Below are positions 2,725 through 10,479 of a stretch of 10,791 bases of DNA, in pieces (the stretch's first letter is position 1; every line of letters starts with the position of its first letter). A model generated the notes under the pieces. It did not search any database and was not told the origin of the DNA. It saw only the letters and a list, made by a program, of their open reading frames with translations. This DNA is from a virus (lineage: Duplodnaviria; Heunggongvirae; Uroviricota; Caudoviricetes). The stretch lies in IMG/VR virus record IMGVR_UViG_2802429244_000006, positions 1 to 10,791 of that record, one strand, 5' to 3'. The position numbers and the translations under genes are program-made.

Positions 2725-2952
2725 TCACACCTCCGATTGCTTACCTTGCCCCTCTTCTGTGTGCGCTAAATCAGGATGGATATACGGGATACTTGGATCC
2801 AGATGGCAGAGAATAGCTACGTCCTCTGGAACACCTCTCGTTTTCCACTTTCCAACACCTTGACTGCCACGAGGCTTTCCTTTCTTTGGGAATCTGCGGC
2901 CAATAGCGGCATTGGTTTTAAATTGAGTTTTTAATATTTCATAAAGGGTCAT
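2725..2952 (-). CDS. Hypothetical small basic protein (75 aa) in the cro-equivalent position
   Basis: First ORF leftward of the divergent region next to the CI-like gene. Weak SD. No obvious helix-turn-helix. Lys/Arg-rich centre (GRRFPKKGKPRGSQGVGKWKTRG). Confidence 0.3.
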   Translation of the reverse strand: MTLYEILKTQFKTNAAIGRRFPKKGKPRGSQGVGKWKTRGVPEDVAILCHLDPSIPYIHPDLAHTEEGQGKQSEV

Positions 2953-3063
2953 TCTTTAGTCTCACACCGGATACTCTGTTATCCAAGAATGTTAAACGCG
3001 AGAATCCAAAGTATCAAGAGATTCTGTTACTTTAGTATCAGCAGCCATGAAAGGAGAAGAAAA
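2953..3063. promoter_or_regulatory. Divergent operator/promoter region (OR-like) between the cro-position gene and the CI-like repressor
   Basis: 111-bp gap between divergent genes. Candidate leftward sigma-70 promoter on the minus strand: TTGATA (3017-3012), 17-nt spacer, TAACAT (2994-2989). GTATCA motifs at 3011-3016 and 3035-3040; the 10-mer aaagtatcaa (3008-3017) recurs at 3747-3756. Confidence 0.4.
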
Positions 3064-3720
3064 ATGAAATCTTTAGGTGAACGCCTCATCAACGCACGAC
3101 AAAAAGCTGGGTTAACGCAAGATGCGTTGGCTAAAAAAGCAGGGGTCACCAGAGTTGCAATCAGTAAAGCCGAGCAAGGCCTTACAAAAAGTTTCAACGG
3201 TGACACCCTTTTTAAAGTCGCAGCTGCACTGCAGTGTTCACCGCAGTGGCTTCAGAGCGGAGATGAAAAAGATAAGCATTGGGAAAATAATGTTAAGAGC
3301 TGCCCACAGAGAGACACAGCACACTCTTACCCTGTAATTAACTGGGTTCAGGCAGGATTATTCGCAACTGCTGGTGATGACTACAACATGTATGATCAGG
3401 ATAACTGGAGGCATTCTGTAAAATACGCTGGTGAGAGGGGGTTCTGGCTGGAAGTGCACGGAGACTCAATGACTTCGCCCGTAGGAATAACATTTCCTGA
3501 AGGAATGTCGATCCTTGTCAACCCAGATAAAGAAGTTTTTTCAGGGTGTTACGTCATCGCCAGAAAAAAATCCACCAATGAAGCAACATTCAAAAAATAT
3601 ATTTCTGAAATGGGAAAGGCGTTTCTAAAGCCCCTTAATCCACAATATCCAATCATAGAAATGGACAATGATTGCGAAATAGTAGGTGTTGTAGTTGATG
3701 CCAGGTGGGATATTTTCTGA
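3064..3720 (+). CDS. cI: Lambda-CI-like repressor (N-terminal XRE-type HTH, C-terminal LexA/S24-like autoproteolytic domain), 218 aa
   Basis: ATG 3064 with AGGAG 7 nt upstream. HTH: LINARQKAGLTQDALAKKAGVTRVAISKAEQG. C-terminal GDSM (catalytic Ser), FKK (Lys) and LNPQYP closely resemble the lambda CI C-terminal domain. Candidate Ala-Gly cleavage sites in VQAGLFATAGDD. The ORF-track start at 2989 lacks an RBS. Confidence 0.9.
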   Translation: MKSLGERLINARQKAGLTQDALAKKAGVTRVAISKAEQGLTKSFNGDTLFKVAAALQCSPQWLQSGDEKDKHWENNVKSCPQRDTAHSYPVINWVQAGLFATAGDDYNMYDQDNWRHSVKYAGERGFWLEVHGDSMTSPVGITFPEGMSILVNPDKEVFSGCYVIARKKSTNEATFKKYISEMGKAFLKPLNPQYPIIEMDNDCEIVGVVVDARWDIF

Positions 3721-3823
3721 CCAGACTCAAAACACAAAAAGAAACAAAAGTATCAAAAATCACTTGCCACACCTTGATACCTTAGTTACCATAAAACAAA
3801 GTTCGTAACTGAGGTATCATCTC
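3721..3823 (+). promoter_or_regulatory. OL/pL-like operator-promoter region with an inverted repeat GTATCAA-N17-TTGATAC (3750..3780)
   Basis: Inverted repeat arms at 3750-3756 and 3774-3780. Candidate promoter TTGCCA (3764-3769), 17-nt spacer, TACCAT (3787-3792). Shares the aaagtatcaa 10-mer with the OR-like region. Confidence 0.4.
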
Positions 3824-4240
3824 ATGATCAATAAAGCTACAACTCTTGACTGTCTTGAAGAACTGAAAAACCTCGGCAGTCTCATTACACTAATAGCCAA
3901 AGCAACGCCAGATGCTACGCTCTCTGGCGATATCGAGTCATGCGCAGGACTGGCATGGGATATGACAAATAGCATATCCAGAAAGCTATCGTCAGCAATG
4001 CTTTTACAGAACAAAAATTCTGCAATCAACAACCGTCTTCGCACCCAACGCGAAGCCTGCGGCTTAACAACCGCCGAACTCGCCAGGCTGCTCGATCTCG
4101 ATGAAGAAATTATCATCCAGTGGGAGAGCGGAGAGTGTGAACCAACCATCAGTATGCTTATCCCACTGGCAAATATTCTTGGCTGCGATCCGATGTGGCT
4201 GTTAACCGGTAAACCAACAGCAGGAGATACTTGCGCATGA
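3824..4240 (+). CDS. Helix-turn-helix (XRE-family) DNA-binding protein, 138 aa, HTH in the C-terminal half
   Basis: ATG 3824 with GAGG 9 nt upstream. HTH-like segment LRTQREACGLTTAELARLLDLDEEIIIQWESGECEPTISMLIPLANILG. First gene after the CI-like repressor on the same strand. Confidence 0.65.
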   Translation: MINKATTLDCLEELKNLGSLITLIAKATPDATLSGDIESCAGLAWDMTNSISRKLSSAMLLQNKNSAINNRLRTQREACGLTTAELARLLDLDEEIIIQWESGECEPTISMLIPLANILGCDPMWLLTGKPTAGDTCA

Positions 4241-4602
4241 AAAAGTTCAAAAACATAACCGTTCTCCATGTTGATTACTTTGATTATACAAACCCGGACC
4301 TTCTCCCGGAGGTTGTAAAAGCAATAGATGTTGCCGATATAGTGATTAGAGGAAAGAGAATTGTCAAAAACAGGCTCGCATGCACTTCAGGAGCAATGAC
4401 AGAAACAACCTCACAGCAAGATAATTACGAAGGCATTTGTCTGGAGCCTGATTCATTTGCGGTAAATGTTTATCATTTATTGCATGCAACACAGGTATTA
4501 CATATGTCCAGTAATCACGAAACGAAAATACTCGGCAGCGAAATTCTGAATTTTGCATGTGAGTATGCAAAAGCTGCTGCCGAAAAAGAATTAGCGCAAT
4601 AA
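4237..4602 (+). CDS. Hypothetical protein (121 aa), translationally coupled to the upstream HTH gene
   Basis: ATG 4237 overlaps the upstream TGA (ATGA); AGGAG 10 nt upstream. No recognisable domain. AT-rich codon usage. Confidence 0.55.
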   Translation: MKKFKNITVLHVDYFDYTNPDLLPEVVKAIDVADIVIRGKRIVKNRLACTSGAMTETTSQQDNYEGICLEPDSFAVNVYHLLHATQVLHMSSNHETKILGSEILNFACEYAKAAAEKELAQ

Positions 4603-5743: not shown

Positions 5744-5932
5744 ATGAGACTGTATTTCACAATAGTAATTTTACTGGCAATTATCGCATGTATTTACGGA
5801 TTACTTGTTCCGTTCCTTATATCCATGAAGGATACGATAGCAGTTATTTCTGGCTTTGCACTGGCGTTTCTGACCCCGCCCTGCATTTATGCCATTTACA
5901 AGGGGCTTTCTTTCACTAAGGATAAAAGATGA
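5744..5932 (+). CDS. Small membrane protein (62 aa, two predicted transmembrane helices)
   Basis: ORF-track ORF; hydrophobic stretches IVILLAIIACIYGLLVPFLI and AVISGFALAFLTPPCIYAIY; stop overlaps the ATG of the SPFH gene (ATGA). Weak or absent SD; alternative in-frame ATG at 5825. Confidence 0.45.
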   Translation: MRLYFTIVILLAIIACIYGLLVPFLISMKDTIAVISGFALAFLTPPCIYAIYKGLSFTKDKR

Positions 5933-6756
5933 AAAAAATTATTTTTGCTTTAGCCATTGTTCTGCCGACTATTGGCCTTGTCGGTTGCGATCGCGTTGAA
6001 CCAGGTAATGTTGGCATCAAGGTAAATAAACTGGGCGACGACAAAGGCGTCGGTGAGGTGGTCGGTGTTGGTCGCTACTGGACTGGCTGGAATACTGAAG
6101 TTTATATCTTCCCCACCTTCAAGCAAATGAAGACCTACGATGAACCGTTCAGTTTCCAGATGAGTGACGGTACAACCATCGGCTATCACATTGGCGTGGC
6201 CTACAAAGTTGATCCATCCAAAGTTACCACGGTGTTTCAGACCTACCGCAAAGGCGTGGATGACATTACAGACACCGACCTGCGCCAGAAGATCGCCGAC
6301 GCACTCAACCGACTGGCCAGCAAAATGACCACTGACAAATTTATCGACGGCGGCAAGTCTGAGCTGCTGGATGAAGCTCTTAAAGACATTCAGGCAGAGA
6401 TGACACCTATCGGTATTCAGGTAATGAGCCTCTCATATGTGGGTAAGCCGGAGTACCCGCCAACCGTTATCGACAGCATTAATGCCAAAGTCACGGCGAA
6501 CCAGAAAACCCTACAACGCGAGCAGGAAGTTAAACAGCGCGAAGCGGAAGCCAACATGTTGCGCGCGGAAGCTGCCGGACAGGCTGATGCGATTCGCACA
6601 AAAGCCCAGGCTGAAGCCGATGCTATTCGTTTACGCGGTGAAGCTCTGCGCCAGAACCCCGGTGTTATGGAGCTGGAAGCCATCAATAAATGGAACGGCA
6701 CACTGCCGCAATACATGACCAGCGGTGCCAATACACCATTTATCCAGGTTAAATAA
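5929..6756 (+). CDS. SPFH/band-7 (prohibitin/HflK/C-like) domain lipoprotein, 275 aa
   Basis: ATG 5929 with AAGGA 6 nt upstream. Signal peptide with lipobox LVGC (Cys20). Central SPFH-like region and C-terminal Ala/Glu-rich coiled coil (QREAEANMLRAEAAGQADAIRTKAQAEADAIRLRGEA) typical of the family. Confidence 0.8.
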   Translation: MKKIIFALAIVLPTIGLVGCDRVEPGNVGIKVNKLGDDKGVGEVVGVGRYWTGWNTEVYIFPTFKQMKTYDEPFSFQMSDGTTIGYHIGVAYKVDPSKVTTVFQTYRKGVDDITDTDLRQKIADALNRLASKMTTDKFIDGGKSELLDEALKDIQAEMTPIGIQVMSLSYVGKPEYPPTVIDSINAKVTANQKTLQREQEVKQREAEANMLRAEAAGQADAIRTKAQAEADAIRLRGEALRQNPGVMELEAINKWNGTLPQYMTSGANTPFIQVK

Positions 6757-7588: not shown

Positions 7589-7798
7589 GTGGGGCTGGAT
7601 TGCGTACCTATATCAACCTACTGCCGCAACGCAGGAGAAACGGTTGATGCCGTTAACAAACGGATACAAAGAGGAATATGGAAAGAAGGGGTACATGTAT
7701 TAAAAGTCGACGGAGTTAAAGAACGTTGGGTCGACTTAATGGAGATTACAAAATGGGCAAGAAAGAACAAGGATCACTATCTCTCCCTAGAGGAGTAA
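7589..7798 (+). CDS. xis: Excisionase-like DNA-binding protein (69 aa)
   Basis: GTG start 7589 with GAGGTG just upstream; sits immediately 5' of the integrase and overlaps it by 46 nt, as xis does in lambdoid phages. Motif KEGVHVLKVDGVKERWVDL is consistent with small winged-helix excisionase-like proteins. Confidence 0.55.
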   Translation: MGLDCVPISTYCRNAGETVDAVNKRIQRGIWKEGVHVLKVDGVKERWVDLMEITKWARKNKDHYLSLEE

Positions 7799-8925
7799 CT
7801 ATTCGCCAGCATAAAACTGGTAGCACTCTGGTTATCACTTTTACATATAAAGGGGTTCTGTGTCGGGAGCCCCTCTCCAGAATGGAAGTAAACGCGCGCG
7901 GTGTGAAGTACGCTGAGCGTCTGCTGGGAGAAATAAAAAATCAGATTATCGATGGTACCTTCGAATATGCAAAATACTTCCCCAACTCCCAAAAGCTGGA
8001 GTTGTTCGGGGGAGTGAAAAAAAACAAAAATATAAAATCTTACCTGGATGAATACCTGATTATCTGCCAGAACCGTAACCTGTCACCATCGACAATTAGA
8101 GGTTATGAAAAATGCCTGTCGGCGCTGTCAGCATTGCATAAATTTCATGTATCAGAACTGACACCTGCAGTACTAAAAAACTGGATCGCCAACAGAAAAA
8201 CAAAACTGAAAACTATCCGCAATAATCTTTCATTCCTGCGCAGCGCCATAGATGAAGCGGTGACCGATGGTTTGTTAACAATAAATCCTGTCACGCTAGT
8301 CAGCGCCAGCCGGTATCACGTATTGGACAACACACCAGGCAGTGATGATTACGAGGTCGATCCTTTTACACCAGCGGAGACGGCAGCAATCTATGACGCC
8401 TGTCATTACCCGGAATGGCGAAATCTGTTTCGCTTTGCCTTTAATACAGGACTGCGCAGCTCAGAATTGTGCGCGTTGCGCTGGACGGATATAGACTTTA
8501 TCGGCAACACCGCGCATGTTCAGACTGCAAGCGTAGTCGGGGTAATCAAAAGCACCAAAACAAAAGCCGGCACCCGCAAAGTGCAACTGAACAGCGAAGC
8601 GCTGGCGGCTCTTCAGGCACAAAAGCCCTACACGGCGCTAAAGAGCGACTTCATATTCAGCGATCCGAAAACTCGCGCTCCTTGGGCAAACGCAGATGCG
8701 ATCCGAAAAAAAGCCTGGGTACCAACCCTTAAAAAAGCTGGTGTACGCTATCGCAATCCGTACCAGACACGCCACACGTTCGCCACTCGGCACATTAGCC
8801 AGGGCGTTAACCTGTTCTGGCTTGCTGGTCAGATGGGGCATAAAGGACCGGAAATGCTGTTCAGACATTACGGCTCTTACCTTGCAGAATACGATGGAAA
8901 AACGGCGATTTCTGCAACCCCGTAA
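7753..8925 (+). CDS. int: Lambda-type tyrosine integrase (site-specific recombinase), 390 aa from ATG 7753
   Basis: ATG 7753 with GGAG 8 nt upstream (ORF track begins at TTG 7726). N-terminal arm-binding-like region resembling lambda Int; C-terminal catalytic motifs (LRSSELCALRW..., RHTFATRHISQG..., GHKGPEMLFRHYGSY) with the conserved Arg/His/Arg/Tyr pattern. Confidence 0.9.
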   Translation: MGKKEQGSLSLPRGVTIRQHKTGSTLVITFTYKGVLCREPLSRMEVNARGVKYAERLLGEIKNQIIDGTFEYAKYFPNSQKLELFGGVKKNKNIKSYLDEYLIICQNRNLSPSTIRGYEKCLSALSALHKFHVSELTPAVLKNWIANRKTKLKTIRNNLSFLRSAIDEAVTDGLLTINPVTLVSASRYHVLDNTPGSDDYEVDPFTPAETAAIYDACHYPEWRNLFRFAFNTGLRSSELCALRWTDIDFIGNTAHVQTASVVGVIKSTKTKAGTRKVQLNSEALAALQAQKPYTALKSDFIFSDPKTRAPWANADAIRKKAWVPTLKKAGVRYRNPYQTRHTFATRHISQGVNLFWLAGQMGHKGPEMLFRHYGSYLAEYDGKTAISATP

Positions 8926-9152: not shown

Positions 9153-9249
9153 ACGTCTATTGTCGTCCAGTGAGAATTGCTGAGAACTATCACTTATGGC
9201 ACCCTGAATGGGACCCACTAAGAAGGGTCCAAAAACCGAGGGTCCCAAA

Positions 9250-10479
9250 ATGGCAAAAATCGCTAAGAAGCTCACTGACACTGAAATCAAAAGCACCAAG
9301 CCAGCCGACAAAGAAATCAACTTGTTTGACGGAGATGGTTTGATACTACGAATCGCTCCCCTCTCGAAAGGAGGAAAGAAGAATTGGTATTTCAGGTATG
9401 CAGTGCCAGTCAGTAAAAAAAGAACCAAAATGAGCCTTGGGACATATCCTCACCTTACACTGGCAAGAGCCAGAGCCTTACGAGATGAATACCTTTCCTT
9501 GCTTGCTAATGGCATTGATCCCCAAGTTCATAACAACGATAAAGCTAATGCCTTAAAGAATGCTACTGAACACACTCTCCAAGCCGTGGCAAGGAAATGG
9601 TTGGATGAGAAGGTAAAGACCTCAGGTATCTCACAAGACCATGCAGCAGACATCTGGCGCAGCTTAGAGAGAAATGTCTTTCCTGGCCTGGGTAATGTCC
9701 CTATCAATGAGATCCGACCTAAGCTCTTAAAACAACACCTTGATCCTATTGAGCAACGAGGCGTATTGGAAACTCTACGCCGCATCATTTCACGTCTGAA
9801 TGAAATCTTCCGGTGGGCAGCCACTGAAGAACTTATTGAGTTCAATCCGGCTGACAACCTTGGTCAAAGATTCAGTAAACCAAAAAAGCAAAATATGCCT
9901 GCCCTTCCCCCAAGCGAATTGCCAAGGTTTATGGAATCTTTGACGAATGCGTCAATCCGGCTGGAAACACGTATGCTAATTGAATGGCAATTGTTGACAT
10001 GGGTTCGTCCGGGTGAAGCCGTTCGCGCAAGGTGGTCTGATATTGATACAACCAACAACATTTGGAACATTCCTGCTGATTTTATGAAAATGAAAAAGCC
10101 TCACAAAGTTCCTTTGAGTAAAGAAGCTTTGCACATCCTTGAATTAATGAAATCAATAAGTGGGCATAGAGAATGGGTTTTCCCCAGCATTAAAGCGCCT
10201 CTTAATCATATGCATGAACAAACAGCCAACGCAGCTATTATCCGAATGGGGTTTGGAGGCGAACTTGTAGCTCACGGTATGCGTTCGATTGCAAGAACAG
10301 CGGCAGAGGCGTCTGGTAAGTTCAGAGCTGAAGTTCTTGAGGCAGCACTCGCCCACTCTAAAAAAGATGAAATTATCGCAGCATACAATCGTGCAGAATA
10401 TCTGATAGAACGACAGAGTTTGATGCAATGGTGGAGTGATTACGTTCAAACTCAAAGAGCTAAAGCTATCGCTGCTTGA
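9250..10479 (+). CDS. int: P4-type (IntA-like) tyrosine integrase, 409 aa from ATG 9250
   Basis: ATG 9250 with GAGGG 7 nt upstream. N-terminus MAKIAKKLTDTEIKSTKPADKEINLFDGDGLILRI fits the P4-integrase arm-binding N-terminal pattern. Conserved blocks DIWRSLER, GVLETLRR, KKQNMP, ARWSDID, HGMRSIART, EAALAH, AYNRAEYL, MQWW. The ORF-track start at 9208 is an upstream extension. Confidence 0.9.
   Translation: MAKIAKKLTDTEIKSTKPADKEINLFDGDGLILRIAPLSKGGKKNWYFRYAVPVSKKRTKMSLGTYPHLTLARARALRDEYLSLLANGIDPQVHNNDKANALKNATEHTLQAVARKWLDEKVKTSGISQDHAADIWRSLERNVFPGLGNVPINEIRPKLLKQHLDPIEQRGVLETLRRIISRLNEIFRWAATEELIEFNPADNLGQRFSKPKKQNMPALPPSELPRFMESLTNASIRLETRMLIEWQLLTWVRPGEAVRARWSDIDTTNNIWNIPADFMKMKKPHKVPLSKEALHILELMKSISGHREWVFPSIKAPLNHMHEQTANAAIIRMGFGGELVAHGMRSIARTAAEASGKFRAEVLEAALAHSKKDEIIAAYNRAEYLIERQSLMQWWSDYVQTQRAKAIAA

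Follow-up and report, generated by a model that had tools for sequence, protein, structure and literature searches.

The closest described systems are the lysis-lysogeny switches of phages lambda, 434 and P22, which together constitute the paradigm for temperate-phage immunity regions built around a repressor and Cro. In P22, a cro-type gene is divergent from the gene for the repressor C2, and the annotation places one set of three operators in the interval separating the two and a second set of three at a promoter that lies downstream of the repressor gene and points in the same direction. The annotated P22 cro gene is followed by nutR, and the P22 PL operon begins with the antiterminator gene 24. 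The operators of P22 are 18-bp dyads, and those of phage 434 are 14 bp long (ACAA-N6-TTGT). A further point of reference is the Stx2e phage phiP27, whose public records hold coding sequences only ('putative lambda repressor' and hypothetical proteins), with operators and promoters unannotated; a full-text literature search returned no description of phiP27-type operators, an earlier proposal in the original phiP27 paper being possible.

Here, we consider a 10,791-nt stretch of phage DNA (henceforth the window), in which positions 2725-4240 very probably form the switch between lysis and lysogeny (the immunity region) in a temperate phage of the phiP27 family, with a lambda/P22-like layout and a repressor that would act on 14-bp dyads. 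As in P22, a cro-type gene is divergent from the repressor gene, with three predicted operators between the two and three at a same-direction promoter downstream of the repressor gene. The dyads themselves (GATAC-N4-GTATC, spaced by 32 and 24 bp in the OR-like region) are unlike the 18-bp operators of P22 in sequence, length and OR spacing. They share their length of 14 bp with the operators of 434 but differ from these in half-site sequence, and the conserved block of each half-site comprises 5 bp, as against 4 bp in 434. Every feature of a lambdoid CI/Cro-type switch that could be tested here was found and, in concept, the phiP27-type switch holds nothing beyond the lambda/P22/434 paradigm, save for a Cro protein with an unusual helix-turn-helix (HTH) turn.

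Element identity and gene neighborhood

Used as a 1.6-kb query, the segment 2700-4300 is 98.9% identical at the DNA level to phiP27 and 83-84% identical to yecE-integrated Stx1a and Stx2a phages, and coverage of 80% or more was seen in 195 of 5426 complete E. coli genomes, prophages of this kind thus being common in the species. In species-representative genomes, the relatives of the repressor are at most 51% identical and are accompanied by other operators, and these loci were set aside. The phiP27 genes L10-L12 belong to the same type of element as the window, with a repressor (L11) that is 100% identical, and the six predicted operators of phiP27 differ from those of the window (A-F, below) at a single base, position 6 in the centre of D. 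Relative to the window, phiP27 has approximately 580 bp extra after L10, namely the gene L09 (5541-6119 of our locus L001), which lies between L10 and L08; the window homologues of the latter two overlap at 4237-4240. In phiP27 as in its relatives, replication/antirepressor genes come first, followed by a 75-aa gene, the divergent repressor gene and an HTH gene and, further on, by xis and int; lambdoid immunity regions have this topology.

Several neighboring genes depart from their phiP27 annotation or are otherwise of note. The minus-strand ORF at 458-1939 (493 aa) has an N-terminal Rha domain plus an Ash domain, and its phiP27 counterpart is present as two separate genes, L14 and L15, annotated 'anti-repressor Ant'. 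Directly after the Cro-like gene, two long ORFs overlap on opposite strands (1905-2711, plus; 1977-2723, minus), neither of which has a Pfam or PHROG match; phiP27 annotates the plus-strand ORF (L13, the counterpart of 1905-2711), against the direction of the early-right operon. In the early-left region, the plus-strand gene at 5929-6756 encodes an SPFH/Band 7 lipoprotein that is conserved in phiP27 (L05) and whose homologue in the yecE Stx2a phage locus L002 is annotated 'serine protease'. Tandem tyrosine integrases are encoded on the plus strand at 7726-8925 and 9208-10479. The first, with an Arm-DNA-bind_2 domain, occupies the position of phiP27 xis and int, and the second is of a different type, combining Arm-DNA-bind_3 with Phage_int_M, and may belong to a neighboring island. 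No tRNA genes were found anywhere in the 10.8-kb window.

The repressor

The plus-strand gene at 3064-3720, identified as a repressor gene in a preliminary description of this DNA, indeed encodes a 218-aa CI/C2-type protein with an N-terminal HTH_3 domain (Pfam E = 1e-14) and a C-terminal S24 autopeptidase domain (Peptidase_S24, E = 1e-22). It is 45% identical over its full length to P22 C2, which shares the combination of HTH and S24 domains, and in an alignment of the two the Ala-Gly, GDSM and FKK motifs coincide; from the aligned Ala-Gly, Ser and Lys positions, the repressor is predicted to cleave itself via the S24 domain. We place its start at the ATG at 3064, just before which lies AAAGGAGAAG, and not at the ORF start at 2989. 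This choice is backed by annotated homologues in relatives that are 657 nt long, the same length as 3064-3720, and the cross-genus homologues have similar N-termini (e.g., MNTLAERL). The repressor mRNA differs from that of P22 in having a leader with a Shine-Dalgarno sequence. The immunity specificity of P22 C2 was considered for this protein and rejected at the above level of identity, given the 14-bp dyad and a different recognition helix; because both dyad and helix differ, the window represents a different immunity group from P22.

Predicted operators

As the operator unit we predict a dyad of 14 bp, G(A/T)(A/T)AC-N4-GTATC, with the consensus GATAC-(T/C)(A/T)(A/T)A-GTATC, of which three plus three copies surround the repressor gene in two clusters (A-C and D-F) approximately 0.77 kb apart. 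In the divergent region, the OR1-like site A (GATACTCTGTTATC, 2970-2983) lies around the predicted start of PR, the OR2-like site B (GAATCCAAAGTATC, 3002-3015) overlaps the PR -35 hexamer with its right half, and the OR3-like site C (GTTACTTTAGTATC, 3026-3039) lies over a candidate PRM -10 element. Downstream of the repressor gene, the distal OL site D (GAAACAAAAGTATC, 3741-3754) is located upstream of the PL -35, the core site E (GATACCTTAGTTAC, 3776-3789) lies over the PL spacer and the start of the -10, and the proximal site F (GTAACTGAGGTATC, 3805-3818) belongs to the PL leader, immediately ahead of the ATG at 3824. The preliminary description had approached the same two regions through a shared half-site: its 10-mer AAAGTATCAA was recovered by both reading and search at 3008-3017 and 3747-3756, and GTATCA is present at 3035-3040 as given, while the copy assigned to 3813-3818 is off by one, its actual position being 3814-3819.

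The two intergenic stretches, the divergent region (111 bp) and that downstream of the repressor gene, total 214 bp. They hold five of the 16 copies of GTATCA in the window, where 4.2 copies are expected and none of 200 shuffles reaches 16. A search of the window with GATACNNNNGTATC, allowing up to two mismatches, gave 13 matches where 3.15 are expected, and the same 214 bp account for six of the 13; this enrichment greatly exceeds what chance would give. Because this pattern was picked post hoc, two independent tests were run, a dyad enumeration and a scan with an externally trained PWM. When all dyads with 5-mer halves and spacers of 0-12 were enumerated, GATAC-N4 ranked at the top with six sites; as one of 60 shuffles also reached six sites, this test is only moderately strong taken alone. 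The PWM was trained on 33 sites from six other genera, with the sites of the window excluded. When applied to the whole 10.8 kb, its first six ranks were exactly A-F, with C at the top (19.1), followed by D (16.8), E (16.6), B (15.5), F (10.4) and A (9.9), and the next match in the window scored 8.7; at the same threshold, shuffled windows yielded a mean of 0.68 matches and a maximum of three. The PWM detected no further operator above a score of 8.7 in the rest of the window, including around the start of the Rha/Ant gene at 1940. Site A may be weak, because in the phiP27 clade it has a T at position 10, where all 33 training sites have a G.

Outside the operator regions, GTATCA occurs 11 times (at 239, 408, 1276, 1940, 5671, 8149, 8313, 9341, 10044, 10481 and 10628), as against approximately four expected, an excess that may be due to chance; by the PWM, none of these 11 copies lies within a full operator-like dyad.

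Predicted promoters and operon structure

A consensus scan bears out the earlier observation that sigma-70-like promoter sites overlap the motifs on both sides of the repressor gene. On the minus strand, the predicted PR of the Cro-like gene reads TTGATA-17-TAACAT, with its -35 at 3017..3012 and its -10 at 2994..2989; site B overlaps this -35, and A abuts the promoter. On the plus strand, a PL-like promoter, TTGCCA-17-TACCAT (3764..3792), is predicted to drive the gene at 3824-4240 together with an early-left-type operon towards xis and int. Both arrangements recur at the same positions in all ten type I loci of the cross-genus comparison described below, as TTGATA-17-TANNNT, with an invariant -35, for PR and as TTGnnn-17-TACNNT for PL.

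For the repressor gene, the simple -35/-10 consensus scan detected no promoter. A candidate PRM-like promoter is provided by an extended -10 element, TG-T-TACTTT (3025..3033, plus strand), which lies inside operator C and is invariant as TGnTACTTT in the ten type I loci; a second set of loci, termed type II below, has TGATATATT at this place. We consider this element the likely maintenance promoter of the repressor gene, with the caveat that, the extended -10 being part of operator C too, its conservation could reflect the operator alone. TGnTACTTT is better conserved than an alternative -10 for the repressor gene, the hexamer TAGTAT at 3033-3038.

The first gene of the PL operon (3824..4240, plus strand) encodes a 138-aa protein with a C-terminal HTH_3 domain, in contrast to the P22 PL operon with its antiterminator gene: the window protein is not N-like. 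The part of this gene that encodes the HTH (the gene itself is followed by another at 4237-4602, plus strand) shares 92-99% DNA identity with genes annotated as DicA/CII-like in unrelated Stx and other prophages, which points to mosaic exchange at this position. In the loci of other genera (L048, L050, L052, L054, L056, L057 and L061), a GC-rich terminator-like hairpin with a T-run lies between the repressor gene and D. In the phiP27 clade of E. coli, this interval amounts to merely 20 bp (3721-3740) and has no hairpin, so transcription from the repressor promoter could run into the PL operon.

Conservation, covariation and the reading of the sites

Among 12 E. coli and phage loci of 84-99% identity, the half-sites vary in only 5 of 60 alignment columns and the promoter-only hexamers in 1 of 17, as against 7 of 24 for the dyad centres and 66 of 115 for the other intergenic columns. 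The difference between half-sites and other columns is significant (Fisher p = 6e-11), with the reservation that columns are not phylogenetically independent; operator E is invariant throughout the 12 loci. At a greater distance, seven cross-genus loci possess a recognition helix, V[TS]RVAISKAE[QL]GLTK, that is identical or nearly so, while their intergenic DNA has otherwise diverged. In an ungapped alignment of ten type I loci anchored at site B, the sites, their order and spacing, PR, PL and TGnTACTTT are kept in Photorhabdus, Providencia, Citrobacter, Yersinia, Kosakonia, Xenorhabdus and Salmonella, so that the motif proposed from the window alone is present in the equivalent regions of related prophages in several genera. 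The distances from A to B (32 bp) and from B to C (24 bp) are unchanged in all ten loci. D and E are likewise kept in all ten, at 34, 35 or 36 bp from each other and with constant spacing within each dyad. Of the ten type I loci, four (Citrobacter, Yersinia, Kosakonia and the type I Salmonella locus) yielded no 14-bp dyad at the position of F, and Citrobacter has only a lone GTATC there.

Three loci (L055, L059 and L060), which we term type II, have a repressor with the recognition helix SRVTISKIELG. These loci possess no GTATC in either intergenic region; in its stead, CGAAAC-N4-GTTTCG-type sites occur six or seven times per locus, those designated A', B' and C' again being spaced by 32 and 24 bp. 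Their Cro-like proteins show one consistent helix-3 difference, with RSGQ replacing R[GS]SQ. In a Salmonella locus, L061, the type I helix goes together with type I sites. Thus, at the level of sequence, the half-site covaries with the recognition helix of the repressor, as judged from the three type II loci. Together, the site statistics, the within-species footprinting by sequence variation, the cross-genus retention of sites, spacing and hexamers, and the helix covariation uphold on computational grounds the earlier suggestion that OR- and OL-like regions flank a CI-like repressor gene.

These observations also bear on what reads the sites. It is unlikely that their principal reader is a different HTH protein encoded nearby, be it the 138-aa protein or solely the 75-aa Cro-like protein, and not the S24 repressor. 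The 138-aa protein does have an HTH_3 domain and its gene directly follows D-F, but the gene at this place varies from genus to genus (its product, of 36, 65, 68, 154, 223 or 236 aa, has an HTH in some loci but not in others), D and E persist nonetheless, and this lack of conservation between genera makes the 138-aa protein an improbable binder of D-F. The Cro-like protein, for its part, is conserved together with the sites in all loci; its binding of the same sites is, however, part of the model that we favor rather than a rival to it, and the half-sites change along with the recognition helix of the repressor. The covariation of half-site and helix, taken with the variability of the downstream gene, therefore argues that the sites are read by the conserved repressor and Cro-like protein and not by the 138-aa HTH protein.

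As to the unit that is read, the preliminary description had singled out an inverted repeat with the arms GTATCAA (3750-3756) and TTGATAC (3774-3780), 17 bases apart. As a repeat, this 31-bp element (3750-3780) exists, and it is retained in relatives because both of its arms are. That it forms the operator, bound by one dimer or tetramer, with single GTATCA half-sites serving elsewhere, is nevertheless very improbable: each arm pairs with a partner 4 bp away to give the 14-bp dyads D and E, the distance between D and E drifts from 34 to 36 bp among loci while the spacing within a dyad never changes, and the divergent region has three 14-bp dyads with no equivalent of the long repeat. Moreover, the relative LC567842 has the perfect 14-bp palindrome GATACTTAAGTATC at site A, where the window has GATACTCTGTTATC. 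Related HTH repressors, such as those of 434, P22 (C2) and lambda (CI), bind 14-18 bp, which also counts against an operator of 31 bp. Since the dyad tests give 14-bp units, GTATCAA-N17-TTGATAC is best understood as a composite of two neighboring operators, to which D contributes its right half and E its left half. Finally, the notion that the GTATC words are a product of chance or of AT-rich promoters, devoid of operator function, is the least probable of all: GTATCA is over-represented outside the two regions too, and a shuffle did yield six dyad matches, but neither accounts for an external PWM that selects exactly A-F, for the unchanged position and spacing of the sites in eight genera whose DNA has diverged around them, for the footprint test, or for half-sites that covary with the repressor helix.

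The Cro-position protein

The minus-strand gene at 2725..2952 heads the early-right-type operon and encodes a protein of 75 aa, which we predict to be a DNA-binding protein of the Cro fold. It had been described as lacking an obvious HTH and hence as atypical for its position. At the sequence level, this holds: the protein matches no Pfam family, HTH domains included, even at E<=10, returns only spurious RanBP2 matches from the PDB sequences, and falls in a PHROG of unknown function. An hhalign comparison with P22 Cro has a probability of 2.3%, which is not significant, though the register is as expected (FKTNAAIGRRF[PKKGK]PRGSQGVGKWKTRGVPED in the 75-aa protein against FGTQRAVAKALG-----ISDAAVSQWKEV-IPEK in P22 Cro). 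It does not follow that the protein is devoid of an HTH. The three structures nearest to its AlphaFold model are all Cro proteins (those of N15, Xfaso 1 and P22), and the model has the three N-terminal helices, the HTH in helices 2-3 and the Cro-like fold that characterize the family. Because the predicted structure has the Cro fold, we regard the gene as encoding a Cro analogue with an unusually long turn, and not a non-HTH protein.

What sets the protein apart is a basic insertion, FPKKGKPRG (residues 21-29), between HTH helices 2 and 3. The Cro proteins of lambda, N15, Xfaso 1, P22 and Pfl 6 differ from it in this conserved basic insertion of 5-9 residues, as well as in the absence of Pfam and HMM matches in the 75-aa protein; in comparison with P22 Cro specifically, it combines the inserted loop with the want of a sequence-level match. 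The residues P22 (a proline), G25 and R28 of the insertion are invariant in 35 homologues of the 75-aa protein. The homologues in Yersinia, Photorhabdus, Xenorhabdus, Providencia, Citrobacter, Kosakonia and Salmonella are unusually conserved, at 56-97% identity, and in every locus retrieved the gene is divergent from an HTH_3+S24 repressor gene. The model makes it most likely that the protein is a Cro whose HTH turn contains a conserved basic insertion, and only in this sense is it atypical. It probably binds the same sites as the repressor.

A model for the switch

From the lambda/P22/434 paradigm, we infer the identity of the binder, cooperativity, the order of occupancy, the identity of PRM and cleavage, and on this basis propose the following scheme. 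In the lysogen-type state, a repressor dimer, combining the HTH with an S24 domain whose self-cleavage would be stimulated by RecA, would occupy the 14-bp dyads GATAC-(T/C)(A/T)(A/T)A-GTATC. Dimers at A and B would block PR, with B covering the -35 and A the start region. Because C overlies the conserved extended -10 of the likely maintenance promoter, its occupation would give OR3-like negative autoregulation. On the other side of the gene, repressor at D, E and F would block PL, with E on the spacer and the -10. Upon SOS induction, RecA-stimulated cleavage at the aligned Ala-Gly would free PR and PL, and both would fire; the 75-aa Cro-fold protein would then take the same sites and shut off the synthesis of the repressor.

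Implications

The occupancy of A-F by the repressor would set the induction threshold of phiP27-type prophages, whose relatives carry stx1, stx2a, stx2d and stx2e. With predicted operators and promoters to hand, the induction of Stx phages of the phiP27 family becomes testable with reporters and defined mutants. Further, the type I and type II groups predict superinfection immunity among prophages of E. coli and seven other enterobacterial genera.

More tentatively, and with slightly less than even confidence in the two parts taken jointly, we propose that the phiP27-type switch uses a previously undescribed variant of Cro, with a basic beta-hairpin-like loop (FPxKGKPR) inside the HTH turn, and that it exists in at least two natural specificity classes with identical operator spacing and promoter layout. 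If this is true, type I would be defined by GATAC-N4-GTATC with the helix TRVAISKAEQ and type II by CGAAAC-N4-GTTTCG with the helix SRVTISKIEL, and the two classes would offer a clean natural system for the co-evolution of repressor, Cro and operator into new immunity groups.
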